Of a DNA stretch of 64,000 bases, positions 9,102-33,109 are shown piece by piece. Source of the stretch: an uncultured Erysipelotrichaceae bacterium (GTDB lineage: Bacteria; Bacillota_I; Bacilli_A; RF39; UBA660); assembly GCA_902786275.1 (NCBI GenBank), contig CADACC010000002.1, forward strand, positions 7,600 to 71,599, written 5' to 3'. The position numbers and the translations under genes were made by a program. How positions within the stretch are numbered: position 1 is the first letter of the stretch; each line of letters starts with the position of its first letter. The notes beneath the pieces were generated by a model. It was not told the DNA's origin, did no database searches, and saw only the letters and a program-made list of their open reading frames with translations.

Positions 9102-9476
9102 ATGAATAAAAAAGGGTTTACTTTAATAGAACTTATTGCAGCAATCATGCTTTTAGGAATTATTTTAGTAATGGTTTCTTTAAATGTTGTTAGACACTTA
9201 GAGAAAAATAAAAGAAAAATAATTCTTGAAAGTGCCAAAAGTTATGTAACAGTAATTAATGATAATAATTATATAAATGATCCAGATAAAGTAATATCAA
9301 GTAGTACAGTTGAATCTATTAATCCAAAGATAAAAAAACAAATAGCAGGAGATTTACCTTCAAGTGGATCTGTAACTGTTAATGCTACAACTAAAAAAGT
9401 ATCTTCTGCAACACTGGTATTTGATAAATACAGAGTTGTATTTAATGGAACTAAATATACAATATCGGCTAATTAA
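9102..9476 (+). CDS. type IV pilin / pseudopilin (prepilin-type N-terminal cleavage/methylation domain, ComGC-like)
   Basis: MNKKGFTLIELIAAIMLLGIILVMV… has the class III signal peptide: G|FTLxE with Glu at +5 and a hydrophobic helix. Length is 124 aa. Confidence 0.75.
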   Translation: MNKKGFTLIELIAAIMLLGIILVMVSLNVVRHLEKNKRKIILESAKSYVTVINDNNYINDPDKVISSSTVESINPKIKKQIAGDLPSSGSVTVNATTKKVSSATLVFDKYRVVFNGTKYTISAN

Positions 9477-9543: not shown

Positions 9544-9579
9544 AAATATAGTATGAAAAATAGAGTATGGAGAGTAGCA

Positions 9580-11968
9580 ATGAAGAAGAGAAACGGTTTT
9601 ACATTAATAGAACTTATTGCAACAATTGCAATACTTACAGTTGTATCCCTTGTTGCAACTATTACTTATAATAAAATTAGAAAAGATGTTTTAGAACATC
9701 AATATTTAAATTTAAAGACTCTTATTGAAACTGCTGCAATTAAATACTCATCTAAAAATGGATACTCTAGTTTTTTTGTTCAAGACTTAATTGAAAATGG
9801 TTTTTTAGAACCAGATGATGAAACAGATGTATATGACCCAAGAAACGATAAATCTTTAAATTGTCATATTTTAAGTATTAGTGTTGAAAAAAATGGTATG
9901 CTTTCAGCTGATATGAGTGATAAATCATATGATGAAAGTGGTAAATGTAAAACATCATCACTTGATATATATGAAGCTAATTTAAGAATGAATGCTAAGA
10001 TTGAAGGAACTAGTGTAACATATCCTGTTAATTCACTTAATACAGGTACTAGTGCTCCATATATCTTTGAAGGATGGACAAGATTTAATCTTGATATAAC
10101 AGCTGATCCATCAAGTATTCCTGAATCTCTTCAAAATGGTAAATATGTATGGAATAGAAATAATGATGTAACTACTATAGAACCTAATAGAACTATTACA
10201 ACTAATGAGTATGGTGTTTATAATAATTATTATTACTTAGATTTCTATACAGAAGCTGGTACAAGATATCAAGCTAAAATGTTATATAAATTTGATAATG
10301 AAAAACCAACTATCTATCGTGACTCTAATGGAAAAGATAGAATAAAGTTTGTTGATCAAGAAGATAATAATAGATGGGCTAAATCTAAAAATGTCTTTAT
10401 CTATGCATCTGATAAAAATGGATCTGGTTTAAGCAAAATATATATTGGACGTGAAAAATGTGAATACGCTCTTGAAAATAATTTAACAAGACCTGCAATT
10501 CCAGGTATCATCCAAGTTTATGAAGTAAAAATTGAAACTGGTGATGCTAGAAATCAAAATGAAGAATATAATGTATGTGTTATTGATAAAGCAGGTAATA
10601 TAGCTAAATCAAAAACTAAAGTTACACTTGTTGATATAACTCCTCCAAGATGTGATCATGTGTCACCTGATTTAGGATCTATTGATGAACCTATTATTAT
10701 GGCTAACTGGATTAGACCAGATAGAACAATTAGAACATTCTGTGCAGATGATCACTATATAACTGAAGATGGTGTTGAAAGACACTTATGGGGTTCTGGA
10801 TGTGTACAAGATTATTATGATAAAACATATTCACCAACTACTATAAATGGTACAACAGAAATAACAGATAATGTTGGTTGGGTTTCAACTTGTGAATATA
10901 GAGTTTTAGTTGATAAAACTCCACCTATATGTGGTGTATCTGAAGATGAATCAACTGTATGGCAATATGAAGATAGAACTATAAAACAACACTATCATGA
11001 TGAACATAGTGGTCCACTTGAAGATACAGTAAATGTTAAAACATTCGTACCAACAACTTTATGTTGATAAAACTCCTCCATACATTTCATATGCAAGATA
11101 TGGTAGTGGAGCATCATTTTATGAATCTAGTTGTCCTGGATTAATATCATTTACATGGACTGACGATGAAAGTGGATTTGCTTCAGGAACTCTTAGCGCT
11201 TGGTATGGAGGAACAAAAACTGCTGATGGTATGGAAACATCTGATGATGTTAATGCTAAGTTATGGACTAATTCATCAAGGACATCAAGATGTGCTCTTG
11301 GAAATTATAGATTTGAGTTACAAGGAACGGATAATGTTGGAAATAAGTCAGCTGTAAAAACTTATAGTTATTCTGTTATACCTGATCCGCCACCACCACC
11401 ACAACCTCCAAGCAATTCCGGTTGTAATTCAAACAAATTTGAAGAATTTAGGGTAAAAGATTCTCATAGCTGTACATATTATATGGAGGTTAGTTATGAT
11501 GAACAAAGATGTCCAAGGTATGGTTGCAAGGAAACTGAATCCCTTTCTGATCTAACATTTACATACTATGCTCAAAAAGAAGGAGAAGCTGTTGATAGGG
11601 CATATAATGCAGTATCTACATCCGCTAATGCAGTTGCCAATCGTATGGGTACACAAATGTATTCCGCTGGTGATAATGGAACACTGTTTATATGGGCAGA
11701 TTGCTCAGCAGGCTCAAATGGATTATCTTGTACAGATAATCGTGACGGTTTTGCTACGTCATATACTCTTGGTAAATCAACATGTTCTGATCCAGAACTT
11801 GTTACTTCTGGATACCATCTTGGTGAATACAAGGTAACATGTAAAGTCAAAAGAACTAGATGTTTAAAATATAAAAATGGCGGGGAATACATGCAAAATA
11901 GTTCTACAGAGTATGTATATTATTGTTGTAAATCATTAAATTCTGATACACATTGTAAAGTAAGATGA
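9580..11968 (+). pseudogene. large (about 800 aa) prepilin-signal surface protein with repeated …VDKTPP… boundaries and a Cys-rich C-terminal domain; interrupted by a frameshift near 11030-11067
   Basis: The N-terminus MKKRNGFTLIELIATIAILTVVSLVA is a class III signal. The frame-1 ORF ends at 11067 (…VPTTLC*). A frame-2 ORF opens at 11033 and immediately reads …LYVDKTPPY…, the same motif as RVLVDKTPPICG at about 10905. This indicates one gene split by a 1-nt indel. The C-terminal part carries a PPPPQPP linker and about 14 Cys. Confidence 0.6.
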
Positions 11969-14797: not shown

Positions 14798-15907
14798 ATG
14801 ATGTATTATTTTGATTATAGTGCAACAACTAAAACAGATAAAAAAGTTTTAGAAAGATTCACTGAAGTATCACAAGAATACTTCGGTAATGCAAATTCAT
14901 CATATGAGTTTGCAAGAAAATGCAAGAAAGTTATTGATGATACAAGCTGTATAATCGCCGACTACTTTGGCGTTTTACCTAATGAAATTATTTATACTTC
15001 TGGTGCAAGTGAAGCTAATAATTTAGCTATCAAGGGAACAGCAGAACTTACAAATAAAAAGCATATTATTACAACTAAGATTGAGCACTCATCAGTTGTA
15101 TCAACATTATCTTATTTACAAAGTAAAGGTTATAAAGTTGATTTCGTAAATATGACTGATGAAGGAACTGTTGATATAGAGCATTTTAAAAGCTTAATAA
15201 ATGACGATACTTTTTTAGTTACAATGTGCGCTGTTGATAGTGAACTAGGTATTAAGCAACCTATTGAAGAAATAGGTAATATTTTAAAAGATTATGATGA
15301 CATAATTTTCCATGTTGATATAACTCAGTGTGTTGGAAAAGTTCCAGTTAATTTAGATAATATTGATCTTGCATCATTTTCAGGACATAAAATTTATGCT
15401 CCAAAAGGAATAGGTGCTTTAATTAAGAAAAATACTGTTAAATTATCACCACTTATTCATGGTGGTAAATCAACAACTGTTTATAGAAGTGGTACTCCAC
15501 AAAACGAACTTATTGCATCACTTGGAAAAGCATTTGAAATATTAATGCCAAATGTTGAAAATAACATGAAATATGTTCAAGAGTTAAACGATTATTTAAA
15601 AGAAAAATTAAATGGTATTGCGCTAATTAATTCAACAAATAAGTCTATTCCAAATGTTTTAAATATAAGTATTCCAGGTGTTGTAAAACAAGATATACAA
15701 AACTATTTATCAGATAGAGAAATATATGTTTCACTTAATACTGCATGTAGTTTAAATACTGATTATTCTAAAGTAGTATATGAACTTTATAGTGATATGG
15801 ATAGGGCTAAATCATCAATTAGAATTAGTTTATCTTATTTAACAACAAAAGATGAAATAGATTATCTTGTTGATAATATAAGAGGGTATTTAAATGAAAA
15901 TAATTAA
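14798..15907 (+). CDS. cysteine desulfurase (NifS/IscS class V aminotransferase)
   Basis: …YFDYSATT…GASEANNLAIKG…SFSGHKIYAPKGIGAL… are hallmark NifS motifs. The start is ambiguous between ATG 14798 and ATG 14801. Confidence 0.85.
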   Translation: MMYYFDYSATTKTDKKVLERFTEVSQEYFGNANSSYEFARKCKKVIDDTSCIIADYFGVLPNEIIYTSGASEANNLAIKGTAELTNKKHIITTKIEHSSVVSTLSYLQSKGYKVDFVNMTDEGTVDIEHFKSLINDDTFLVTMCAVDSELGIKQPIEEIGNILKDYDDIIFHVDITQCVGKVPVNLDNIDLASFSGHKIYAPKGIGALIKKNTVKLSPLIHGGKSTTVYRSGTPQNELIASLGKAFEILMPNVENNMKYVQELNDYLKEKLNGIALINSTNKSIPNVLNISIPGVVKQDIQNYLSDREIYVSLNTACSLNTDYSKVVYELYSDMDRAKSSIRISLSYLTTKDEIDYLVDNIRGYLNENN

Positions 15908-16148
15908 AATAACAGCTTCTTGGTGTCCATCTTGTTTAATAATGAATGGTATGATAGATGATATTATTTCTAAATATAATTTAGAAATGATTAGTTTAGA
16001 TTTTGATTTAGATCAAAGTGAAGTTGAAAAATATAATGTTGGAACTTTGCTTCCAGTACTTATTAAATTAGATGATAATGATAATGAAATATCAAGAATA
16101 AAGGGAGAAAAATCAGAAAAAGAAATCGTAGAATTTATAGAAGGATAA
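15894..16148 (+). CDS. thioredoxin-family small protein (WCPSC active site)
   Basis: 84 aa containing …TASWCPSCLIM…. It overlaps the nifS-like gene by 14 nt. Confidence 0.7.
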   Translation: MKIIKITASWCPSCLIMNGMIDDIISKYNLEMISLDFDLDQSEVEKYNVGTLLPVLIKLDDNDNEISRIKGEKSEKEIVEFIEG

Positions 16149-16155
16149 ATGTTTT

Positions 16156-17373
16156 ATGAAGAAGTATATAACGCTAATTATTGCACTTATTTTATTAATT
16201 ACACCAATATATACTAAAGCTTTATCTGTTTCTAAAAAATCAAATGAAAAAATCTATTTATTTTATGGAAGAGAGTGTCCTCATTGTGAAGAACTAATGA
16301 AATATTTAGATGAGTTATTTTTAGATAAGAAATATAAAGATGTAAAGCTTGAGAAATATGAAGTGTGGCATAATAAAGAAAATAATAGTAAGCTTGTTGA
16401 AGTAGCGAAGATTCTTAAAGAAGATGCTGTTGGGGTTCCATACATGGTAATTGGAACAAATGTTGTTCAAGGATTTTCTGATGCAAATAAAGAAGAAGTA
16501 AAAGCCATTATAGATTTTTACCTTTATGAAGAATATTTTGATCCAGCAGGTGACTATTTAAATAAAACTGATACATCAAAACTACCAACTTTAAAATATG
16601 AAAAAGAAAATAAAGAAGAATATGATGTTCCGGTTTTAGGTAAAATAAATGCAAAAAATGTATCTTTATTATTAGTATCAGTTATTATAGGTGCAGTTGA
16701 TGGATTTAATCCTTGTGCTATGTGGATACTACTTTTCTTACTTAGTTTACTTATTTCAACTAAAGATAGAAAGAAAATGTGGATACTTGGTTTAACATTT
16801 ATTTTAACTAGTGGAATTGTATATCTATTATTTATGCTTTCTTGGTTAAATGTAGCTAAATATACATCAAGCATTATTGTAATAAGATACTTAATAGGTG
16901 TATTTGCTTTAGTATTTGGATCTATTAATTTATATAGGTTTATTAAAACTTTAAAAGAAAAAGATGTTGGTTGTGATGTAACTGATGCTAACAAAAAAAG
17001 AAAAATAATGGATAGAATAAGAAAAGTCCTTGATCAAAACAAATTACTTTTAGCAGTTCTTGGTATTATGCTTTTAGCAGTATCAGTAAATTTAATAGAA
17101 CTATTATGTTCACTAGGTCTTCCTGTTATGTATACAGAAATACTTGGTTTGAATAATTTATCAACTCTTGAGTATGGCTTTTATATGTTTATATATATCT
17201 TATTCTTCTTAATAGATGATCTAGTAATATTTATTATTGCTATGAAAACATTAAAACTTAAAGGTATATCAAATAAATATATGAAATACTCACATCTAAT
17301 AGGTGGCTTAATAATGTTAATCATAGGTCTTTTAATGATAATTAAACCATCTTGGTTATTATTTAATTTTTAA
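16156..17373 (+). CDS. secreted thioredoxin-like domain (CPHC) fused to a CcdA/DsbD-type thiol-disulfide transporter membrane domain
   Basis: Signal peptide, then …FYGRECPHCEEL…, then the membrane core …GAVDGFNPCAMWILLFLL… (CcdA/DsbD signature), with a second Cys in CSLGLPV. Confidence 0.7.
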   Translation: MKKYITLIIALILLITPIYTKALSVSKKSNEKIYLFYGRECPHCEELMKYLDELFLDKKYKDVKLEKYEVWHNKENNSKLVEVAKILKEDAVGVPYMVIGTNVVQGFSDANKEEVKAIIDFYLYEEYFDPAGDYLNKTDTSKLPTLKYEKENKEEYDVPVLGKINAKNVSLLLVSVIIGAVDGFNPCAMWILLFLLSLLISTKDRKKMWILGLTFILTSGIVYLLFMLSWLNVAKYTSSIIVIRYLIGVFALVFGSINLYRFIKTLKEKDVGCDVTDANKKRKIMDRIRKVLDQNKLLLAVLGIMLLAVSVNLIELLCSLGLPVMYTEILGLNNLSTLEYGFYMFIYILFFLIDDLVIFIIAMKTLKLKGISNKYMKYSHLIGGLIMLIIGLLMIIKPSWLLFNF

Positions 17374-17457: not shown

Positions 17458-17485
17458 TTAAACATAATAAGGGATTGTGAATAGT

Positions 17486-19447
17486 ATGAAAAAGAAAAAT
17501 GGTTTTACATTAGTTGAACTTATTGTTACTTTAGTAATCTTAATTGTCTTAACTTTAATTGCAACAAATATTATTTTAAGTCGTATAAATAAAACAAGAC
17601 AAGAAGCCTTTTTAGATAAAGTAAAAATATATATTAAAGGCTTAGATGCTGATGTTATGGATAACAAAGAATACGATGAGTTTAAGGTATATAACTTTCC
17701 AGGATATAAAATAAAAGCTGTTGATGAACAACCTGATGCTGGCTTCATTATGAAAAATGAAGATAATGAATACCGTGCTCAAATATGGAATAACAAACTT
17801 GAAAAATGTGCAGTAAAAGGTTTTTCAGATACCGATGTTAAAATATCTAAAACTATAAAAAATAAAGCAGACTGTGTATCAAGTTATGCATCAGCTAATA
17901 ATGTTATTGGACAAAGTATATATAATTTATTTGGTATTGAAATGAAAGATTCTGATGGAAATGATGTTGTTATTAAAGAATCTTGTTATACAGTTAATAG
18001 TAGTGGACAAATAACTGACTATGATGCTGACAAATGTGGTTATATTTTTATAACTCCAGATAAAATAGATGGTAAGGATATAACAGGTTTTAATACTGAT
18101 TTTTATAATAATTTAAGAAATAAGGATGTAACTGACTTTTATATAGCTAATGTTCCTAAACTTACAACAATCCCATCTGGATTTTTATCAGGCAATTCAA
18201 ATGTTAAGAATATTATGATTTATGGAAATCCTTTATTAACAGAAATACCTGCTGGATTCTTATCAGGTGATAGAAATCTAGATAGTGTAAGAATAATAAA
18301 TAATCCAAACCTTACCACTTTTGCTCAAGGTAATTTCTTCTTCAGTCAAACAGATCATGGATTTATTAAAAAAATAGAATTTGCTGATTTACCAAAACTT
18401 TCTACTTTCTCAGCTGTATTTGCTTATGTAGATTTTGAAGAATTTATTTTAAGAAATATTGGTGAGGACTCTGGTGATGGAATTCAAATAAAAGATAATG
18501 CATTAACAAACAATATAGGAGTTAATAACGCAAGACTTATTATTGAAGATAATAAAGGTTTATATTATGGTTCTGATGGTGCTATGTCATCATTCTATGC
18601 TGCAGATCACGATAAATCCAGTATAAGTTATGTGTCTATTAAAAATAATAAAAGACTAGATCTTTTATCATATAGTTTTCTTTGTAATGTTAAATATAAT
18701 AATGCAGAAATATATATTGAAAATAATGACTCTTTAACAGGTATTAGAAATAGTGCTTTTATTGGTGATGGTACTATAAAAAAATTAATTATTAAAAATA
18801 ATAAAAATTTAACAGGATTTGGTGAATCTGCATTAAGTGGTAATACATCAAATGGTGGACTACAATTTGTTAATGGCGATTTAATTATTGAAAACAATGA
18901 TAGCCTTGCGGAAATAACTAATAGTGCTATGGGTGGTTTAGCAGGAACAATTAATAAGTTCTCAATATCAAATAATAAGAGCTTATTAACATTTACAAAT
19001 GGAGCCCTAACAAATGATTCTAATAACAAACCAAATATAAAAGAATTTATTGTTAAAAATAATGCAAAATTATCAATTATTGACAATGGTACAATTTCTA
19101 ACTATAAGATTGATAAGGCAGTATTTGAAAATAATGCATCTCTTGATAATTTATGTCGATATAGTGCCTTTTCAAATAATGAGATAAATGTTCTTGATTT
19201 GTCCAAATCACAATTTACTACAGTTGAACCATCATGCGGAATATATAATAATTCAATAAATACCTTAATACTACCAACAACACTTACTAACTTTACACCA
19301 GGTCATTTAACAAGTGGTGTTAAAAAAGAAGTATATGCGGGTGGGCCAAATAAATGCGCACTTAATAACTATTTTATAAATTATAATCCAGATGGATCAA
19401 TAGCAGGATATAATGTTAATCCATCAATAGTGCCTGTTTGTGATTAA
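17486..19447 (+). CDS. prepilin-signal protein fused to BspA-type leucine-rich repeats (LRR_5-like), about 650 aa
   Basis: N-terminus MKKKNGFTLVELIVTLVILIVLTLIA is a class III signal. The C-terminal two thirds are tandem about 23-aa repeats (…IPSGFLSGNSNVKNIMIYGNPLLTEIPAGFLSGDRNLDSVRIINNPNLTTF…) typical of BspA/Treponema LRR surface proteins. ATG 17486 is preferred over the in-frame GTG 17477. Confidence 0.75.
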   Translation: MKKKNGFTLVELIVTLVILIVLTLIATNIILSRINKTRQEAFLDKVKIYIKGLDADVMDNKEYDEFKVYNFPGYKIKAVDEQPDAGFIMKNEDNEYRAQIWNNKLEKCAVKGFSDTDVKISKTIKNKADCVSSYASANNVIGQSIYNLFGIEMKDSDGNDVVIKESCYTVNSSGQITDYDADKCGYIFITPDKIDGKDITGFNTDFYNNLRNKDVTDFYIANVPKLTTIPSGFLSGNSNVKNIMIYGNPLLTEIPAGFLSGDRNLDSVRIINNPNLTTFAQGNFFFSQTDHGFIKKIEFADLPKLSTFSAVFAYVDFEEFILRNIGEDSGDGIQIKDNALTNNIGVNNARLIIEDNKGLYYGSDGAMSSFYAADHDKSSISYVSIKNNKRLDLLSYSFLCNVKYNNAEIYIENNDSLTGIRNSAFIGDGTIKKLIIKNNKNLTGFGESALSGNTSNGGLQFVNGDLIIENNDSLAEITNSAMGGLAGTINKFSISNNKSLLTFTNGALTNDSNNKPNIKEFIVKNNAKLSIIDNGTISNYKIDKAVFENNASLDNLCRYSAFSNNEINVLDLSKSQFTTVEPSCGIYNNSINTLILPTTLTNFTPGHLTSGVKKEVYAGGPNKCALNNYFINYNPDGSIAGYNVNPSIVPVCD

Positions 19448-21455: not shown

Positions 21456-22727
21456 ATGAAAAATAGTAAGGCTTTTACACTAATTGAACTTATAGCTGTA
21501 CTTGTTATTTTAAGTTTATTAACAGTTATAGCAGTTCCAGCTATTTCTCATTTAATAAAGAGAAATAAAGATAAATCATTTAATACAAAAGTAAATGTAA
21601 TTATTAAACAAGCTAAACAATATTCATATGATAATGAAAACTTTTTAAATGGTAGTAACAAAAAATACGATGGTTATGTATGTAATACCATAACTGTAGG
21701 AGAGTTAAAAAATCTTGGTTACTTAGAAGAATTAGAAAAAGAATCAGGAACTAATAAAATAACTGATCCTAGAACTAATGAATCTATGGAAAACTATACA
21801 GTTATGCTTTATATAAAAAGTAATACAACAGGAACTGGTACAAATAAAACTGCTGGTGCCTTGGTTGGAACTATAAAAAATATTGATAAATGTGAATCAA
21901 GTGGAGACATATTTATTTATACAGGAAGAGAAGAAGTTTTTACTGCAGCAACAGCGGGAAAATATAAAATTGAAGCCTGGGGTGCAGAAGGTGGATCTGC
22001 AAGTAAAACATACCGTGGTGGATATGGTGCATATTCATATGGTGAGATAACTCTTGCTCAAAATGAAAAACTATATGTAAACGTTGGTGGCCAAGGTGGA
22101 GTAACATTACAAGCAAATGTTATAGAACTTGGTGGATATAATGGTGGAGGAATTGCTGTTAATGGTAATTCTGACTCACTAAGTTTAAATGTTGGAGCAG
22201 GAGGTGGAGCATCGTCCGTTGCTTTATCATCTGGACTACTTAGAAGTTTTGAAAATGACCCATCACAAGTTATTATTGTAGCTGCTGGTGGAGGCGGAGG
22301 AAAATATTACGCCGATAGATACCATGCAACCGGTGGAGATGCTGGAGGAATTGCTGGTGGCGATGCCAAAGACTTACAATGGTATGATAACTACGGTCGC
22401 GGTGCATCTCAAACTGCAGCCGGTTGTAATTCAACTGGTGGAAGTTGTGGTTCATTTGGTGCATCTAACTTACCAGGTTCTCCAACACCAACAACTGGTG
22501 GTGGCGGAGGCTACTATGGTGGTTCTGGTGGACAATATGGTGGAGGCGGAGGCTCAAGCTATATAGGAAACTCTAGATTAACTAATAAAGAAATGTATTG
22601 TTATAACTGTACTGAATCATCAGATGCATCAACTAAGACAACTTCAACAACGTGTGTTGAAGCTGATGCAAAAATAAACTGTGCTAAAAAAGGAGCAGGT
22701 GCAGTTAGAATTACTCACGTTGAATAG
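21456..22727 (+). CDS. prepilin-signal protein with C-terminal glycine-rich (GGxGG-repeat) domain; paralogue 1
   Basis: N-terminus MKNSKAFTLIELIAVLVILSLLTVIAVPA. The C-terminal domain is …KIEAWGAEGG…YRGGYGAYSYGEITL…LYVNVGGQGG…GGYNGGG…AAGGGGG…GGGGGYYGGSGGQYGGGGGSSYIGN…AKKGAGAVRITHVE. Its motif order is shared with the three genes at 26727-31527. Confidence 0.75.
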   Translation: MKNSKAFTLIELIAVLVILSLLTVIAVPAISHLIKRNKDKSFNTKVNVIIKQAKQYSYDNENFLNGSNKKYDGYVCNTITVGELKNLGYLEELEKESGTNKITDPRTNESMENYTVMLYIKSNTTGTGTNKTAGALVGTIKNIDKCESSGDIFIYTGREEVFTAATAGKYKIEAWGAEGGSASKTYRGGYGAYSYGEITLAQNEKLYVNVGGQGGVTLQANVIELGGYNGGGIAVNGNSDSLSLNVGAGGGASSVALSSGLLRSFENDPSQVIIVAAGGGGGKYYADRYHATGGDAGGIAGGDAKDLQWYDNYGRGASQTAAGCNSTGGSCGSFGASNLPGSPTPTTGGGGGYYGGSGGQYGGGGGSSYIGNSRLTNKEMYCYNCTESSDASTKTTSTTCVEADAKINCAKKGAGAVRITHVE

Positions 22728-24797: not shown

Positions 24798-26315
24798 ATG
24801 GAAAAGCAAATGGAAAGACAATACGAAATAAATGATTTCTTAAAAACTTTATTTAGTTATAAGGTTGATAATAATACTGAAATAACACCTGAAGTTGTTT
24901 CTAGTTTTTTGTATACTTATGATCTTTCACCTGAAGAATTAAATTATACATATCGTAATATTTATCCTTACTTTGAAAAAGATTTTCAAAATACAAAAAC
25001 TAAAGTTCATGAAGATCCAAGACAAAAGAATTTCTTACAACTTAGAACAAGAAATAAATTTAATGATAATAATTATATAAAAATGTATATAAATGTTAAC
25101 CCAACATACATCTATAATGTTGTAAAACAAGTAATAGATTTTTTAAATGCAAATGGAATAGATCACAACTCAAAAGTAAGTTCTAGTCCAAGAAGTGATG
25201 GATTTGTTGTTAGATTAAAAAATGCATCTGATGCTAAAGCATTAGCTGATTATATTAATAATGATCAATCACTTGTAAGTGTTATAAGAAAACCTATACC
25301 TTTTATGTTTAGAGATGGTGTTGTAGGTTTATCATATGATAAGAATTTATCATATATAACAGTTTTAACTAATTTAATAACTAAATATATTAATAGTAAA
25401 GAAAATGCAAGTGAAATATCATATAAAGATTTCTGTCAGTTCCAAAGAGATAATATTTATAATATTTTCTCAGCTAAAAATAAACTAGCTGGTTTAAAAG
25501 AATTAGTATCAGGCGATGAATATAAAAAATCACTTGGTAGAATCAGAACTATTAGTAAAGCTTATATGGAAGAAGATTTGTTATCAAATTATTTAAATGT
25601 GTATAATGACTTAGCATTATCTACAATTGAAAATGATGAAAGTAAATATTATCAACTATATAATGGATTTACTAATACAGAACTTCAAAAGAAACAAGTA
25701 GCATCAATTACTGATCTAGTTTCTTTAGTTAAAAAAGATACTATTAATGAGAAGAAAGAATTAATAGATGATTATATTTTATATGCATATAATACATATA
25801 AGAACATAGATACTGTTAGAAAACAATTATTTGAATTTCAAAAAGGTCATTATAGCGCTATAACTAGAGATCAAAATTTTAGAGTAAGACTTGCTGATCT
25901 AGATGAAGAAGATTTAAGAACTATTACCAATCCAAGTATTGATAAATATATTAAAGATGTTTTAGCAAAAGAACTTAATGTCGAATCCGGTGAAAAAGGA
26001 ATCGATAAATATCAAATATTTATTAATGCTTGTAAGGCAACATATCAAACTCATGGTGTTGAGCAACTTAAAAAAGCAATAGAACTTGCTCTAACTAACA
26101 GAAACTATCAAGCATTTACAAATCAAAATGGTGGCTTTAGAAGAGAACTAATAAAATATGTTTTACCTGAAGAAGTTATTAATTTTGTAAATGAAACAAT
26201 TGAAAAGAATGTTAAAGTAAGAAATACATCAATTCCACTTCATGAAGAGTTTACAAATATATTTGTTGCACTAGTAATGCCAAATGAATCAATGTATAAA
26301 GGTTTAGCAGCATAA
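24798..26315 (+). CDS. hypothetical protein (505 aa), no recognisable domain
   Basis: Long uninterrupted ORF, probably co-transcribed with the small acidic ORF upstream. Confidence 0.5.
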   Translation: MEKQMERQYEINDFLKTLFSYKVDNNTEITPEVVSSFLYTYDLSPEELNYTYRNIYPYFEKDFQNTKTKVHEDPRQKNFLQLRTRNKFNDNNYIKMYINVNPTYIYNVVKQVIDFLNANGIDHNSKVSSSPRSDGFVVRLKNASDAKALADYINNDQSLVSVIRKPIPFMFRDGVVGLSYDKNLSYITVLTNLITKYINSKENASEISYKDFCQFQRDNIYNIFSAKNKLAGLKELVSGDEYKKSLGRIRTISKAYMEEDLLSNYLNVYNDLALSTIENDESKYYQLYNGFTNTELQKKQVASITDLVSLVKKDTINEKKELIDDYILYAYNTYKNIDTVRKQLFEFQKGHYSAITRDQNFRVRLADLDEEDLRTITNPSIDKYIKDVLAKELNVESGEKGIDKYQIFINACKATYQTHGVEQLKKAIELALTNRNYQAFTNQNGGFRRELIKYVLPEEVINFVNETIEKNVKVRNTSIPLHEEFTNIFVALVMPNESMYKGLAA

Positions 26316-26370: not shown

Positions 26371-26613
26371 GTGGGATTAAGTGATTCCCTTTTTGATAAA
26401 ATAGAAAAGAAAACTAATGTAGATAAGAAAACCATTTATGAACTTGCAGCAAAGTTGCAAAATGGACATATGAAAGATGAAAAAACTATAAGAGAAATAA
26501 TTGACACTTTATCAAAGATGACTGGTAAAAAAGTATCTAAGGAAACATCAGATAAAATTGTTAGTAAAATAAAAAATGATGAAGTACCTAAAAAGGTTGA
26601 TAAATATTTTTAA
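26371..26613 (+). CDS. small hypothetical protein, possibly SpoVIF (YjcC)-like
   Basis: 80 aa. MGLSDSLFDKIEKKTNVDKKTIYELAAKLQNGHMKDEKTIREIIDTLSKMTGKKVS… resembles my recollection of the SpoVIF pattern (F..IEKKTGV…F.LA..LQN…DEKTVR.VI..L). This rests on memory only. Confidence 0.35.
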   Translation: MGLSDSLFDKIEKKTNVDKKTIYELAAKLQNGHMKDEKTIREIIDTLSKMTGKKVSKETSDKIVSKIKNDEVPKKVDKYF

Positions 26614-26726: not shown

Positions 26727-27977
26727 ATGCCTAAGTATAAAAATAATAAAAAGGGATTTACTTTAGTTGAGCTTTTAGCAGTTGTTATAATTCTAATAAT
26801 CATTATGACAATTGCAATTACTACTGTAAATAAACAAATGGAAAAAACTAGAAAGAATGCATTTGTTGCAGATGTAAATATTTTTATAAAAGCTGCACAG
26901 CAAAAATATTCATCTGATAGATCTAACCATGCTGCTGGTGAAGATTTATTTCATAATGCTATAGAGGGAAAAGTTTGCTATTCAATAGATCAACAATTAA
27001 TTGGTAAATACGCAGAAAAAACAAGTGAAAGTTATACTGGATCAGTTGAAGTATGTTATGGTGAAGAATGTGAATATGCAATTAAAGTGTGGGCAACAGA
27101 TGGAGAACATTATGTTGACGGGGCAACATATTTTAGAGATAAAAAAGATATCAAAAAGAAATATACAACTGATTATCCTTTAACTTGTGGTGTTGAAGCT
27201 TTAGGTGGCGGTGGAACAGGTGGAGACTTACTTACTGCTGAATTCGAATCTAGACCTGAAGAATATAAAATGACAATTGTTAAAGATGGTGTATATTCCC
27301 TAGAAGCTTGGGGAGGACAAGCAGGACGTTACATGGAACTTCGTGGTGGTTATGGCGGATATGCATATACTGAAATTGAACTTCATGTTGGAGACACACT
27401 ATACATTAATGTAGGTGGAGCTGGAGGCGATTATAGTTCTGTTACTGGATATGGTAAGGGAGGCTATAATGGCGGTGCTAATGGAGCCAGTAATAGACAT
27501 GCAGGTGGCGGAGGAGCTACTACAATAACAACAAAACCAGGTTTTCTTTATGATAATGTACTACCAGATTATGTTTATTTAGTTGCAGGTGGCGGAGGAG
27601 CTAGATCTGGTTCAGAATGCTGCTGCAATGCCATGACAAGTGGAAATAGTGGTGGAGGAGCATGTGATGAATCAAATAGAATTTGCCAGTCTAATCACAA
27701 TTACGGGAAAGCGACATACCCTGGTGCTGGTGGTGGGTTTAGAGCTCAAGCTTCAGATATAGGTTGTGGCTATCCATCAGGTGGATCAGGTTATATTGGT
27801 AATCCACTAACAAAAAATGGTGTTATGTATGGTTATAATGCTACTGAAAACACATCTGCAAAAACTAAAACTATACCAACTACAAATATAAGTGAAAAAC
27901 CAATCTCTGGTTATGCTAAACAGGGTGCAGGTTTTGCAAGAATAACTTATATAGGAACATTTACTAATCAAGAATAA
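26727..27977 (+). CDS. prepilin-signal protein with glycine-rich GGxGG-repeat domain and CCC motif; paralogue A
   Basis: …NKKGFTLVELLAVVIILIIIMTIAI… followed by a conserved globular region (…KVCYSIDQQLIGKY…GSVEVCYGEECEY…WATDGEHY…). The Gly-rich domain reads EAWGGQAGRYMELRGGYGGYAYTEIELHVGDTLYINVGGAGG…GGYNGG…AGGGGATTI…VAGGGGARSGSECCCNAM…GGSGYIGNPLTKNG…AKQGAGFARITYIGTF. Confidence 0.75.
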   Translation: MPKYKNNKKGFTLVELLAVVIILIIIMTIAITTVNKQMEKTRKNAFVADVNIFIKAAQQKYSSDRSNHAAGEDLFHNAIEGKVCYSIDQQLIGKYAEKTSESYTGSVEVCYGEECEYAIKVWATDGEHYVDGATYFRDKKDIKKKYTTDYPLTCGVEALGGGGTGGDLLTAEFESRPEEYKMTIVKDGVYSLEAWGGQAGRYMELRGGYGGYAYTEIELHVGDTLYINVGGAGGDYSSVTGYGKGGYNGGANGASNRHAGGGGATTITTKPGFLYDNVLPDYVYLVAGGGGARSGSECCCNAMTSGNSGGGACDESNRICQSNHNYGKATYPGAGGGFRAQASDIGCGYPSGGSGYIGNPLTKNGVMYGYNATENTSAKTKTIPTTNISEKPISGYAKQGAGFARITYIGTFTNQE

Positions 27978-28015
27978 GTAATATTATAGAAATATAGAAG
28001 AAAGTGGTGTTTAAA

Positions 28016-29245
28016 TTGAATAAGAAAGGATTTACTTTAGTAGAACTTTTAGCAGTTACAATAATACTTATAATTATTACAACTATTGTAATATTTACCG
28101 TTAATAAACAAATGGAGAAAAGTAGACTTAATGCATTTTTAGATGAAGCTAATGTATTTGCTAAAGCTGCTCAACAAAAATATTCAACAGATAGAACTAC
28201 CGAAGCCATTTCAGAGGATTTATTCCATAATGCAATAAAGGGGAAGGTTTGTTATTCAATTGAACAACAACTTTTAGGTAAGTATGTTGAAAAACCTAAT
28301 AGTAAATATACTGGATCAGTTGAAGTATGTTATGGACTTGACTGTGAATATACTTATAAAGTATGGATTACAGATGGAGAACATTACATTGATGGACAAA
28401 CTGAAATAAATGATTACAATGACATAAAAGAAAAATATACAACTGAGTATCCTTTGACATGTGGTGTTGAAGCTGCTGGTGGTGGAGGATCTGGCGGAGA
28501 CTTACTTACTGCAGAGTTTAAATTTTCAGGATCTCAATATGAAATGACTATTGCAAAAGATGGAGTATATGCTCTTGAGGCTTGGGGTGCTCAAGGAGGA
28601 CGCTTTGGAGAAACACGTGGAGGATATGGCGGATATGCTTATACAGAAGTTGAACTTCATGTTGGTGATAAACTTTATATTCAAGTTGGAGGCCAAGGTG
28701 GTGTAAACGGTGTTGGAAATCCAGGTGGATATAATGGTGGTGCAGATGGTCAAGGTTCCGGTGGCGGTGGAGCAACAACAATTGCAACCAAACCAGGATT
28801 CATATATGATCCTATATTAATTGATTATGTATATATCATTGCCGGAGGTGGCGGCGGAGTTGCAAGATGGTGCTGCTGCTGTGGTGGAATCTCTAGAGGA
28901 TTTAATGGTGGTGGATACTGTGCAGAACCTTCGCCTAATAGAGGTACTATTTGTCAAGCTGGACATAGTTATGGAAAAGCTACTGGCTACGGAGGCGGTG
29001 GAGGATATCGTGCCCAAAGTAGCCAAGTTGATAGTGATCATCATATGGGTGGATCTGGTTATATTGGTAACCCACTTACAAAAAATGGCATCATGGCTGG
29101 ATTCAACGTTCCAGAAAGTACTGCTGCAAATACAAGAACTATTAGTACAACAAATGTATCAGAAAAACCTATATCACAATATGCAAAACAAGGTGATGGG
29201 TTTGCAAAAATAACTTATATAGGAACATTTAGTGACCAAGAATAA
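28016..29245 (+). CDS. prepilin-signal protein with glycine-rich domain and CCCC motif; paralogue B (TTG start)
   Basis: Same architecture as paralogue A: …NKKGFTLVELLAVTIILIIITTIVIF…EAWGAQGGRFGETRGGYGGYAYTEVELHVGDKLYIQVGGQGG…ARWCCCCGGISRGFNGGGYC…GGSGYIGNPLTKNG…AKQGDGFAKITYIGTF. The start is placed at TTG 28016 by alignment with ATG 29287 of paralogue C; both are preceded by GAAAGTGGTG. Confidence 0.7.
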   Translation: MNKKGFTLVELLAVTIILIIITTIVIFTVNKQMEKSRLNAFLDEANVFAKAAQQKYSTDRTTEAISEDLFHNAIKGKVCYSIEQQLLGKYVEKPNSKYTGSVEVCYGLDCEYTYKVWITDGEHYIDGQTEINDYNDIKEKYTTEYPLTCGVEAAGGGGSGGDLLTAEFKFSGSQYEMTIAKDGVYALEAWGAQGGRFGETRGGYGGYAYTEVELHVGDKLYIQVGGQGGVNGVGNPGGYNGGADGQGSGGGGATTIATKPGFIYDPILIDYVYIIAGGGGGVARWCCCCGGISRGFNGGGYCAEPSPNRGTICQAGHSYGKATGYGGGGGYRAQSSQVDSDHHMGGSGYIGNPLTKNGIMAGFNVPESTAANTRTISTTNVSEKPISQYAKQGDGFAKITYIGTFSDQE

Positions 29246-29286
29246 AACTATATAAAGAATAAACCATTGAAAGTGGTGAAATATAA

Positions 29287-31527
29287 ATGAATAAAAAAGG
29301 ATTTACATTAGTAGAGTTACTAGCGGTTATGACACTTCTTCTTGTCATAATCTTCTTTGGTTTTAGAAATTTTATTAAATCTTTTGAAAAAAACAGAATG
29401 AAAACATTTTTATCTGAAGCTTTAATAATTTCAGAAGGTGCTCGAAATAAATATGCTGATGATAGATTAAATGAAGTTAATATCCAAGATGCATATTTTG
29501 GATCATCTGAAACTAGTACATGTTATGTATTTGAGTCAGCTTTAAAAGATAAATATGTATCTAAGTATAGTTACAAATATAGTGGATCTGTTGAAGTATG
29601 CCATGATATAGATTGTGACTATGATACAAAAATATGGCTTACTAATGGAGAGTTTTATTTAAACGGAGTAATAACTGATCATACATTAAAAAATACTGTA
29701 ATAGATTATAAATTTAATGATAATAATTATTTAACTTGTGGAGTTTCATCTAACACACTAAATCCTGCATATGCAATTGACTATACTGGTAAAGAAGAAA
29801 CAATTACTATTATAAGAGATGGTGTATATGCTTTAGAAACATGGGGAGCTCAAGGCGGACATAGAGGAACATATCGTGGTGGATATGGTGGATATGCATA
29901 TGACGAAATAGAACTTAGTGTTGGTGATAAACTATATGTAAATGTTGGCGAACTTGGAACTGATACTAAATCTGGTTATAACGGCGGAGGACCTGTTGGA
30001 AGTAATAGATCTGGTGGCGGAGGTGCAACTACAATTGCTGGTAAATCCGGTTTAATCAGTTCACCAATTGTTCCAGATTATGTTTATAATGTCGCCGGAG
30101 GTGGCGGCGGTGCTACTAGTTATTGCTGCTGCTGTGGTGGATATGAAACTGGATATAGCGGTGGAGGAGCCGTTAGTGAAAGAAATATAATCGGACAATC
30201 TGGATATAGCTATGGAAAAGCAACAGGCTACGGAGGCGGTGGAGGATACCGTGCACAAAGTGGTGATAATGGTGATGGTCGTGGACTAGGTGGATCTGGT
30301 TATATTGGTAATCCTCTTACATATAATGGTGTGATGTATGGGTTTAATGTTCCTGAAAACACTGGTGCAACGACCAAAACATATTCAACCACTAATGTAT
30401 CTTCAGAACCAATATCACGATATGCAAAACAAGGTAATGGTTATGCCAAGATAACATATTTATCTGAATTTAGTATTAAATATGATTTAAATGGTGGTAC
30501 AGTTCAAACACCTAATCCAACATATTATAGTCACACAAGTAGTGCTATTACTTTAAATAATCCAACTAAATATGCATATATATTTGATGGTTGGTTTGGA
30601 AGTAATGGACCTGTTCCACAAACTAATTTAACTATTCCATCTGGTAGTGTTGGTAACAAATTCTACACAGCACACTATGTACCAGTTGAATATTCAATTA
30701 CGTATAACTTAAATGGTGGATCATTTGGTGAAAATGCCACTCATCCATCTACATATAATATTGAAAGTAGCAATATAACATTAAGTGAACCAAAGAAAGA
30801 TGGTTATGTATTTATTGGATGGACAGGAAGCAATGGTGAAGATCCACAAAGAACTGTAACCATTTCAAATGGAAGTTCAGGTAATAAAACATATACTGCT
30901 GTATTTGAAAAGGTATATACTGTAACACTTGATTATAATATTGATAACTATACATTTGCATCTGATGGTTCATATATGGATTCAGGATTAATTCTTGATT
31001 TTGATAATAATTATAATATTAACATGGATGTAAATATACCAACATCTGGTAAGCGTTATTTACTAATCGGAAACTATAATACATCAAGGCAATTAAACTT
31101 AGAAATTACAACTGGTAATAATGTAAGAATCTATCAAAGTGGGGATAGAGGAAATACTGGCGCAATTACGATTGGTGAAGATGCAAACTTTGTATTTGAT
31201 TACACAGCTGCAAGTAAAGCATATAATGCAACGTTTACAAGTGCATCAACTAATGCATCAAACTCAGGTTCTTTAAGTCAAACTGGTTTTTCAACGGCAA
31301 CACTTAGACTTGGTCAGGATATGCGTGGTGGAGCAACATTTACTGGATATAACCTAAAAGGATTAAAAATAACATCAGGACTTACAATGAGTAAGCTTCC
31401 AACAAATGTATCACTTCCTGGTTCTAACTTTGTTGGTTGGTTTACAAGTAAAACTGGAGGAACTCAAGTTACATCATCAACTGTTCCAGCTTCAGAAAGT
31501 GTTACTTACTATGCTCGTTGGAATTAA
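29287..31527 (+). CDS. prepilin-signal protein with glycine-rich/CCCC domain plus C-terminal Listeria-Bacteroides (Flg_new) repeats; paralogue C (746 aa)
   Basis: MNKKGFTLVELLAVMTLLLVIIFFG…ETWGAQGGHRGTYRGGYGGYAYDEIELSVGDKLYVNVGELG…SYCCCCGGYETGYSGGGA…GGSGYIGNPLTYNG…AKQGNGYAKITY. These are followed by about 50-aa repeats: KYDLNGGTVQTPNPTYYSHTSSAITLNNPTKYAYIFDGWFGSNG / ITYNLNGGSFGENATHPSTYNIESSNITLSEPKKDGYVFIGWTGSNG / …FVGWFTSKTGGTQV…YYARWN. Confidence 0.75.
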   Translation: MNKKGFTLVELLAVMTLLLVIIFFGFRNFIKSFEKNRMKTFLSEALIISEGARNKYADDRLNEVNIQDAYFGSSETSTCYVFESALKDKYVSKYSYKYSGSVEVCHDIDCDYDTKIWLTNGEFYLNGVITDHTLKNTVIDYKFNDNNYLTCGVSSNTLNPAYAIDYTGKEETITIIRDGVYALETWGAQGGHRGTYRGGYGGYAYDEIELSVGDKLYVNVGELGTDTKSGYNGGGPVGSNRSGGGGATTIAGKSGLISSPIVPDYVYNVAGGGGGATSYCCCCGGYETGYSGGGAVSERNIIGQSGYSYGKATGYGGGGGYRAQSGDNGDGRGLGGSGYIGNPLTYNGVMYGFNVPENTGATTKTYSTTNVSSEPISRYAKQGNGYAKITYLSEFSIKYDLNGGTVQTPNPTYYSHTSSAITLNNPTKYAYIFDGWFGSNGPVPQTNLTIPSGSVGNKFYTAHYVPVEYSITYNLNGGSFGENATHPSTYNIESSNITLSEPKKDGYVFIGWTGSNGEDPQRTVTISNGSSGNKTYTAVFEKVYTVTLDYNIDNYTFASDGSYMDSGLILDFDNNYNINMDVNIPTSGKRYLLIGNYNTSRQLNLEITTGNNVRIYQSGDRGNTGAITIGEDANFVFDYTAASKAYNATFTSASTNASNSGSLSQTGFSTATLRLGQDMRGGATFTGYNLKGLKITSGLTMSKLPTNVSLPGSNFVGWFTSKTGGTQVTSSTVPASESVTYYARWN

Positions 31528-31630: not shown

Positions 31631-33109
31631 ATGAAGAAGAAGGAAATTATAGAAGCTATCTCTAAAAGAGGTGGTGGGGAAATATATTTAGGTGTAGTTG
31701 GCCCAGTTAGATGTGGTAAATCTACATTTATTAAAAAGTTTATTGAAAACATGGTAGTGCCTAATATTGAAGATGAGTTTACTAAAAAGAAATGTTTAGA
31801 TGAAATTCCACAAACGGCTGAAGGTAAAACAATTATGACAACAGAACCAAAATTTGTACCTTCTCAAGGAGCAACTATTAATGTAGATAAGTTTGAAACT
31901 AATATTAAATTAGTTGATTGTGTTGGGTATATTGTTCCAGGGTCAAATGGTTTTGAAGATGAAAATGGTAATCCTAGAATGGTAAAGACTCCTTGGTTTC
32001 AAGATGCTATTCCATTTGTAGAAGCAGCCGAGCTTGGTACACAAAAAGTAATAGAGGATCATGCAACTATTGGAATCGTAATTACAACTGATGGATCTTT
32101 TGGTGAACTTAAAAGAGAAAATTATATAAATGCTGAAGAAAAAATCGTAAATGAACTAAAAAATATAAATAAACCATTTATTATTGTTTTAAATTCATCA
32201 TTTCCAAATAAAGAGGAGACAATTAATTTAAAAAATGAACTAGAAGTAAAATATGATACCCCAGTAATTAACTTAAATATTGAAAATATGAGTGAAGCAG
32301 ATATAACAAATATATTAAGAGTTTCACTAGATGAGTTTAAAATAGAAGATATTCTATTTAATATGCCTAAATGGATAAGTGAACTACCAAAAGAAAATGA
32401 GATAAAATTATCTTATTTAAACAGTATTAAAAATACAATAATAAGTGTTGATAAATTAAAAGATGTAAAAGATATAATAAGTAATTTTGAAAATAATGAA
32501 TATATAAAAGAAGCATATATTAGTGAACTTAATCCATCAACTGGTATTGTTAAAATAAATATCGAAGAAAAAGAGAATTTATTTAGTGATGTTATTTCTA
32601 ATATAATAGGAGAAGATTCCATATCTCAGTCAAAACTTATAAGTATATTTACAACATATAAAGAAACTAAAGAAGAATATGAAAACACTAAAAAGGCTAT
32701 GCAAATGGCGATTAAAACGGGATATGGCATAATATATCCAGAACTTAAAGATATGAAGCTTGGAACACCTGAGGTTATTAAACAAGGTTCTAGATATGGA
32801 GTAAAACTAAAAGCTGTTGCATCTAGTATTCATTTAATGAAAGTAGATGTAGAATCTACATTTGAACCTATCATCGGAACTGAATCTCAGAGTAAAGAAT
32901 TAATAGATTATATTATGAAAGATTATAAAGATAATCCAGAAAATATTTGGCATAGTGAAATATTTGGTAGAAGCTTAGAATGTATTGTTAAAGAAGGTAT
33001 TCAAGCTAAACTTTCTTTAATGCCAGATCAAACAAGAAATAAACTATCTCAAACAGTAACAAAGATAGTTAATAAGGGTTCAAATAACCTAATAGCATTT
33101 GTATTTTAG
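31631..33109 (+). CDS. spoIVA: stage IV sporulation protein A (spore-coat basement-layer ATPase)
   Basis: N-terminus …GGEIYLGVVGPVRCGKSTFIKKFIENMVVPNI… is the characteristic SpoIVA Walker-A region. Length is 492 aa. The HU gene lies immediately downstream, as in B. subtilis. Confidence 0.85.
   Translation: MKKKEIIEAISKRGGGEIYLGVVGPVRCGKSTFIKKFIENMVVPNIEDEFTKKKCLDEIPQTAEGKTIMTTEPKFVPSQGATINVDKFETNIKLVDCVGYIVPGSNGFEDENGNPRMVKTPWFQDAIPFVEAAELGTQKVIEDHATIGIVITTDGSFGELKRENYINAEEKIVNELKNINKPFIIVLNSSFPNKEETINLKNELEVKYDTPVINLNIENMSEADITNILRVSLDEFKIEDILFNMPKWISELPKENEIKLSYLNSIKNTIISVDKLKDVKDIISNFENNEYIKEAYISELNPSTGIVKINIEEKENLFSDVISNIIGEDSISQSKLISIFTTYKETKEEYENTKKAMQMAIKTGYGIIYPELKDMKLGTPEVIKQGSRYGVKLKAVASSIHLMKVDVESTFEPIIGTESQSKELIDYIMKDYKDNPENIWHSEIFGRSLECIVKEGIQAKLSLMPDQTRNKLSQTVTKIVNKGSNNLIAFVF

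Follow-up and report, generated by a model that had tools for sequence, protein, structure and literature searches.

The TG domains of the receptor kinases ALK and LTK (PF12810; 7LRZ, 7NX1, and 7LIR) are built from near-invariant glycine blocks with variable loops between them, a plan that they have in common with the bacterial domains described here, to which they are related by profile and fold homology. For instance, the ALK segment …IIAAGGGGRAYGA… aligns with the [VI]AGGGG block of the bacterial domains and is overlapped by ALK residues 841-848, which are listed as a polyglycine-II helix (PMC13243192). In phage tail-fibre tips, such as Pam3 gp24 and the S16/T4-type gp38, a conserved glycine scaffold likewise carries hypervariable specificity tips; Pam3 gp24 has a TNF-like and glycine-rich fold, and in each of its extended loops a hypervariable distal tip, the proposed receptor-binding part, connects two glycine motifs (PMC9608196). 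The grafting of modules onto pilins is represented by PilB and PilC of Streptococcus sanguinis, two modular type IV pilins with a vWA module and a lectin module, respectively; modular pilins are said to be widespread and, in monoderm bacteria, are thought to be tip-located adhesins (PMC8179133). Adjacent cysteines are found joined in the vicinal disulfides of the von Willebrand factor A2 domain and of cyanobacterial RexT. Vicinal disulfides are rare.

The window, i.e., the whole 64-kb stretch of DNA that was analyzed, encodes three proteins (wA, wB, and wC) with glycine-rich domains of the ALK/LTK type, in which three or four cysteines follow one another directly. The bacterial domain is carried on a pilin module, whereas that of ALK is part of a receptor kinase; it comes with no ALKAL ligand, and the equivalent loop of ALK is devoid of a cysteine run. 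A cysteine pair equivalent to C306/C317 of wB, described below, is common in the PF12810 family. The phage tips are displayed on the virion, whereas the domain considered here belongs to a cellular pilin-like protein and no chaperone gene was seen; cysteine runs are not described for phage tail-fibre tips. The modular pilins and wA, wB, and wC share a class III signal peptide, a pilin module, and a bulky C-terminal graft; however, the graft is a PF12810 domain in this case (extended by Flg_new repeats in the long proteins), the genes lie dispersed between housekeeping genes, and the proteins are known from sequence alone. Vicinal disulfides resemble the runs in that the cysteines are adjacent, but the described cases are single pairs. 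The run is best placed as an unusual feature within known kinds, namely PF12810 domains, modular pilins, and disulfide-stapled loops, and is not a new system. A literature search for PF12810 and bacterial ALK-like domains returned nothing on these proteins.

Modular pilin-like proteins with ALK/LTK-type domains

The genes encoding the run-bearing proteins and a more distant paralogue are located in the window as follows:

26727-27977, + strand: wA, short modular type IV pilin-like protein of 416 aa with N_methyl and PF12810 (59 bits)
28004-29245, + strand: wB, short modular pilin of 413 aa with a GTG start and PF12810 (70.7 bits)
29287-31527, + strand: wC, long modular pilin of 746 aa in which Listeria-Bacteroides (Flg_new) repeats are added to the pilin head and the glycine-rich domain
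21456-22727, + strand: wD, more distant paralogue of like architecture with six scattered domain cysteines and no run

In all four proteins, a prepilin N-terminus is combined with a pilin head that has four invariant cysteines and with an ALK/LTK-type glycine-rich domain. The Pfam N_methyl domain (PF07963) scores above threshold in each of them, and the PF12810 scores, for which the threshold is 24.5, range from 58 to 122 bits. The G/FTLxE motif of a class III signal peptide is present, as is a hydrophobic N-terminal helix (…KKGFTLVELLAV…). On these domain matches and signal features, we assign wA, wB, and wC to the modular type IV pilin-like proteins. Components of a pilus assembly system, namely a prepilin peptidase, an assembly ATPase, and a platform protein, were found nowhere among the scanned ORFs of the 64-kb window.

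The AlphaFold2 model of wB (pLDDT 88.3, pTM 0.83) consists of a pilin helix (residues 12-65), a head with a small beta-sheet, and the glycine-rich module, in this order. The PDB structures matched by this model are exclusively the TG domains of ALK, LTK, and SCD-2 (E-values from 6e-10 to 1e-6), with modest TM-scores of 0.3-0.46 against the ALK/LTK structures. A single-sequence comparison with PDB sequences yielded no ALK match, and a profile was required: the profile built from 66 homologues matches the solved ectodomains of ALK, LTK, and SCD-2 (7lir, 7lrz). In the BFVD collection, the wB model matches 96 viral proteins at E<=0.001, most of them from phages and including virion structural and tail-fibre proteins, and the glycine-rich domain also matches PHROG families of unknown function. 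By these profile and model matches, the C-terminal module of wA, wB, and wC is identified as an ALK/LTK-type TNF-like and polyglycine (PF12810) domain. Among the homologues, the PF12810-type glycine-rich domain occurs in up to 12 copies in giant proteins of 4,000-7,000 aa from other metagenomic organisms (P0130, P0131, P0145, P0147, P0157, and others).

Seven prepilin-type ORFs (9102-9476, 9553-11067, 17477-19447, 21456-22727, and those within 26727-31527) are distributed among housekeeping genes of the window, such as those for a tRNA synthetase, EngB, Der, SpoIVA, and HU. They include a plain pilin of 124 aa and a protein of 656 aa whose match to leucine-rich repeats is weak and below threshold.

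Location, codons, and distribution of the cysteine runs

The three runs have the following positions:

27618-27626, + strand: CCC of wA (C298-C300), TGC TGC TGC, …GSECCCNAM…, in the hypervariable tip loop A
28871-28882, + strand: CCCC of wB (C290-C293), TGC TGC TGC TGT, …ARWCCCCGG…
30124-30135, + strand: CCCC of wC (C280-C283), TGC TGC TGC TGT, …SYCCCCGG…

The original prediction, which had reported these runs at one position right after the [VI]AGGGG block and their absence from the paralogue at 21456-22727, was borne out when sequences and codons were rechecked. The coordinates of all three runs match, each run starts 4-6 residues downstream of [VI]AGGGG(G) and the three align together, and wD has scattered cysteines instead in both its sequence and the alignment. 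Cysteine makes up 1.15% of the 17,502 residues in the window ORFs, for which about 0.03 CCC runs are expected by chance, and runs of at least three cysteines occur in wA, wB, and wC only. The run is thus far from chance; it is, however, one paralogous feature present in three copies and not three separate events. At a G+C content of 28%, the window prefers TGT as its cysteine codon (159 TGT and 42 TGC, i.e., 79% TGT), contrary to which 9 of the 11 run codons in wA, wB, and wC are TGC.

Within the domain, the run lies in the segment that separates glycine blocks six and seven, termed loop A. The glycine blocks are near-invariant within the clade (column entropy of 0.24-0.64 bits), whereas loop A (after AGGGGG) reaches 2.1-2.5 bits at its non-cysteine positions; loop B has 1.7 bits, and loop C, which comes after GGGGGYR following the eighth block, has 2.4 bits. 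Loops A and C are therefore the most variable segments of the domain, and the alternation with conserved blocks matches the pattern of the phage tips. In the wB model, the run is predicted where a small hairpin (strands 287-290 and 295-297) makes its turn, a region with a pLDDT of about 68, which is the lowest confidence within the domain. By analogy with Pam3 gp24 and S16 gp38, we infer that loops A and C are distal, ligand-contacting tips situated at the same end of the domain.

A homology search yielded 1,194 matches at <=1e-5, of which 120 were inspected together with 150 representatives from an exhaustive HMMER search. Among the homologues inspected, the run is confined to relatives with at least about 58% identity. 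Four cysteines are carried by P0001-3, P0006, P0009, and P0010, three by P0004, P0008, and P0013, and two by P0005, P0012, and P0121, whereas the site has no cysteine in P0007, P0011, P0014, P0015, P0031, P0040, P0042, and all more distant homologues inspected. A scan of genome contigs detected only distant relatives in metagenome-assembled genomes of Bacilli and Clostridia, none of them run-bearing. The homologue search started from wC added no further run-bearing clusters and missed wC's own cluster, hence such searches are not exhaustive. Across the family at large, adjacent CC pairs are rarer than expected (12 observed vs 39±6 in shuffled sequences), and we therefore rejected adjacent cysteines as a general tip device of this family. 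Isolated CC or C..CC motifs occur in the same loop of the distant members P0203, P0215, and P0083. From this distribution, the run is a lineage-specific feature of a small clade of uncultured gut Bacilli rather than a feature of the family. The host lineage is known from metagenomes alone, and related contigs come from gut samples.

That homologues in other genomes might lack the run had been linked, in the earlier reading of this DNA, to a lineage-specific trinucleotide expansion. The alignment upholds the lineage-specific part, as most homologues are without the run, but speaks against an expansion, given mixed codons and fixed lengths. The (TGC)3 repeat is limited to the window copies and two genes of the related locus L012, and other carriers mix TGT and TGC; the run codons in the related loci L011, L012, and L014 include TGT TGT TGC TGT, four consecutive TGT, TGT TGC TGT, TGC TGT TGT, and TGT TGT. 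Mixed synonymous codons in relatives indicate that cysteine is conserved as an amino acid and not as a bare repeat. At the strain level (at least 90% identity), CCC is present in all 14 members of the wA cluster amid variable adjacent residues, and CCCC in 11 of 11 full-length members of the wC cluster. Phase variation by slippage was rejected, since these 25 strain-level sequences show no length polymorphism. All 18 run-bearing sequences have cysteine at positions 291 and 292, compared with 11 at position 290 and 14 at position 293, and the flanks are highly variable; thus, the conserved core of the run is a Cys-Cys pair. Taken at the level of codons and lengths, the run is not a bare repeat expansion.

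Gene conversion and co-variation of cysteines

Three syntenic loci (L011, L012, and L014) contain arrays of two or four such pilin genes in a shared order: EngB, a wD-type pilin, Der, SpoVIF, the array, and then SpoIVA or HU. Features of these loci and of the window are:

Window 26727-31527; L011 5493-12716; L012 5242-12428; L014 10001-13553: pilin arrays composed of short and long gene pairs
Window 24798-26315; L011 3771-5285; L012 3330-4844: 505-aa protein with a marginal match to the HopA1-effector family (23.5 bits vs a cutoff of 22.7)
Window 26371-26613 and 31631-33109: sporulation genes, SpoVIF-like and SpoIVA, respectively, adjoining the pilin array

The HopA1-like gene is located just upstream of the array in three loci and is absent from L014. 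Judged by these sporulation genes, the host is a spore-forming lineage of uncultured Bacilli; it is probably an anaerobic gut firmicute.

The pilin-head tree separates the short proteins (~410 aa) from the long ones (~750 aa), with 37-41% identity, whereas in the glycine-rich-domain tree every short gene clusters with its adjacent long gene at 62-77% identity. The loop regions within these short/long pairs are 59-86% identical; the window pair wB/wC gives the lowest values, and the other loci have 68-77% in the domain and 74-86% in the loop region. At the DNA level, neighbors are 40-60% identical in the head and 70-96% identical in the domain, with a peak over the loop region. The conflict between the two trees, together with this rise in DNA identity, indicates that the domains have been homogenised by gene conversion. 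On this sequence evidence, gene conversion keeps the cysteine patterns matched within adjacent short/long pairs. The presence of the run in all three window paralogues had been put forward as conservation; the agreement is real but does not count as independent evidence, because adjacent domains are homogenised by gene conversion. Unlike the agreement among wA, wB, and wC, the comparison between genomes provides independent evidence on the run at the level of sequence.

A bias toward even numbers of cysteines is accepted as a computational signature of exported proteins that form disulfides, and cysteine is generally excluded from the exported proteins of Firmicutes (PMC2823432). The pilin head always has four cysteines. 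The glycine-rich domain has 0, 2, 4, or 6, with an even count in 24 of 25 clade members, and the cysteine total is even in 67 of the 76 short homologues with a pilin head and a glycine-rich domain; shared ancestry and gene conversion exaggerate the statistics of this parity, and only about six independent cysteine patterns are represented. The cysteine patterns of the domains are as follows:

wB: CCCC plus the C306/C317 pair
wA, L012_5242, and L012_6511: CCC plus the counterpart of that pair plus one cysteine in loop C; in wA, the cysteines besides the run are C313, C320, and C347
L011_5493 and L011_6768: CCCC plus two loop C cysteines, without the 306/317 pair
wC: CCCC alone
L011_9136 and L011_10440: CC plus a second CC
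Both L014 genes: CC alone
P0011 and P0031: none

Two of the cysteine features outside the run are located in the window at:

27765-27767, + strand: C347 of wA in loop C, which accompanies the three-cysteine run across the clade as its presumed partner
28919-28954, + strand: C306…C317 of wB, the intra-loop cysteine pair of loop B

The C306/C317 pair is widespread in more distant homologues and is present or absent strictly as a pair, from which we infer that it forms a separate intra-loop disulfide. The cysteines flanking the core of the run are gained and lost jointly with cysteines in the second variable loop (loop C), and in the domains with CC alone the two cysteines have only one another as an intramolecular partner. 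Even counts and compensating loop cysteines point to intramolecular disulfide pairing.

Redox context and explanations of the run

A gene pair with thiol-redox features is also encoded in the window:

15894-16148: small thioredoxin with a WCPSC motif
16156-17373: thioredoxin-fold membrane protein of 405 aa, directly downstream of the small thioredoxin gene

The same pair is found in L014 (1675-3153). The 405-aa protein combines a signal peptide with a domain of thioredoxin/glutaredoxin fold, in which a CPHC motif is invariant, and with a multi-helix membrane domain that has the invariant cysteines C187 (in NPC), C273, and C318. Its homologues number more than 6,000, all of them unnamed, and searches returned no Pfam domain for the protein and no PDB fold match for its membrane part; a DsbD-, CcdA- or VKOR-like label is thus unjustified. 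The motifs and topology of the pair suggest an extracytoplasmic thiol-disulfide system, either oxidising or reducing, and the 405-aa protein may represent an undescribed family of extracytoplasmic thiol-disulfide oxidoreductases. Other exported proteins encoded in the window are rich in cysteine, mostly with even counts (10, 8, 10, 10, and 8). In addition, a 311-aa ORF (11033-11968), the first part of which overlaps with the end of the pilin-like ORF before it, has 14 cysteines, including the adjacent C298-C299, and a weak match to an OmpL47-type barrel.

With respect to the role of the run, we give about an even chance to a clade-specific disulfide staple within a surface adhesin module, at its hypervariable tip loop, a proposal drawn from the sequence comparisons above and in keeping with the putative thiol-redox pair of the window. 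In its simplest form, the C291-C292 core of wB would be a vicinal disulfide. In the CCCC forms, C290 and C293 could bond to each other, or else the flanking cysteines of the run could bond to cysteines of the neighboring tip loop (one for CCC plus one, two for CCCC plus two). Such pairing would yield an even cysteine count and a rigidified or cross-braced binding tip. The staple would have arisen inside a small lineage of uncultured gut Bacilli, with gene conversion keeping adjacent genes matched. Among the modifications that the original prediction had listed for the run, an unusual disulfide is accordingly favored by the even cysteine count and the co-variation between loops, whereas lipidation or a thioether is disfavored by the absence of a maturase-like gene nearby. 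The conserved neighborhood (EngB, Der, HopA1-like, SpoVIF, SpoIVA, and HU) lacks radical-SAM, lanthipeptide-type, and acyltransferase genes, and the run is part of a large folded domain rather than of a peptide precursor; a thioether or sactionine bridge, S-lipidation, or another enzymatic modification of the cysteines, for which the unusual cysteine density is the one favorable observation, is therefore very improbable. A bolder form of the disulfide reading, in which CCCC would hold two disulfides within four residues (C2-C3 inside C1-C4, or tandem vicinals) and act as a strained, redox-sensitive latch that switches adhesion, appears quite unlikely. The latch would be at the tip of a pilus-displayed, phage-tail-fibre-like adhesin, the tip conformation of which a gut anaerobe could switch with the local redox state, and gene conversion would maintain neighboring short and long pilin genes as matched specificity cassettes. 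Against the staple itself stand the low model confidence at the run, the rarity of vicinal disulfides, and the arrangement of a vicinal pair inside a second disulfide within four residues, which is not known to have a precedent; in addition, the host is probably an anaerobe from a group that generally keeps cysteine out of its exported proteins, so free thiols or bound metal are conceivable.

The remaining explanations differ from an intramolecular staple in what the thiols would bind, or in whether they have a role at all. Disulfides could instead be formed between molecules, i.e., between the short and long partners, between pilins in a fibre, or between the adhesin and a host thiol (for example of mucin), so that the tip complex or the attachment would be covalently stabilised. 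This is consistent with the cysteine pattern that adjacent short and long genes always share, with the L014 domains, which have no intramolecular partner for their cysteines beyond the adjacent CC itself, and with the predicted placement of the run in an exposed hairpin turn; however, gene conversion of whole domains, with up to 96% DNA identity, accounts for this sharing, and intramolecular pairing is a better fit to the even count in every protein and to the compensating loop cysteines of the same protein, which makes bonds between molecules unlikely. Contiguous thiols might also bind a soft metal (Zn, Cu, Fe, or Cd) or a small cluster at the tip, as a dense surface thiol patch in a probably anoxic habitat, where thiols would be kept reduced, might suggest. 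A single site would, however, be ill served by the geometry of four contiguous residues, the flanks lack conserved His or Asp co-ligands, and the cysteine number varies (0, 2, 3, or 4) among relatives with at least 58% identity whose domains are otherwise conserved; moreover, a metal site does not require an even count with compensation elsewhere, and we rate this explanation as rather improbable. Finally, the run might be a near-neutral product of (TGC)n slippage in a tolerant loop, spread by gene conversion and devoid of a specific role. The presence of (TGC)3 in all three window copies against the 79% TGT bias, the different run lengths among relatives (CC, CCC, CCCC, or none), the hypervariability of the loop, the demonstrated gene conversion, and the close relatives P0011 and P0031 without any cysteine at this site are all in line with such an origin. 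It is opposed by the mixed codons of orthologous runs (for example, TGT TGT TGC TGT and TGC TGT TGT), by the central CC that stays invariant while its flanks vary, by the constant length across the 25 strain-level sequences, by the parity compensation with a second loop, and by the avoidance of CC pairs elsewhere in the family, so that we consider a neutral insertion to be unlikely as well.

If the staple reading is correct, the polyglycine scaffold with variable tips that is found in human ALK/LTK, in phage fibres, and in pilins would have been rigidified in this clade by compact disulfides, and the run would represent natural adjacent-cysteine chemistry in an exported protein of the firmicutes, a group in which cysteine is said to be avoided. 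The wider setting may outweigh the run itself: as far as can be judged from their genes, gut Bacilli display ALK-like domains on type IV pilin modules, in short/long pairs that appear to be homogenised by gene conversion and that lie near a conserved thioredoxin-fold membrane protein.
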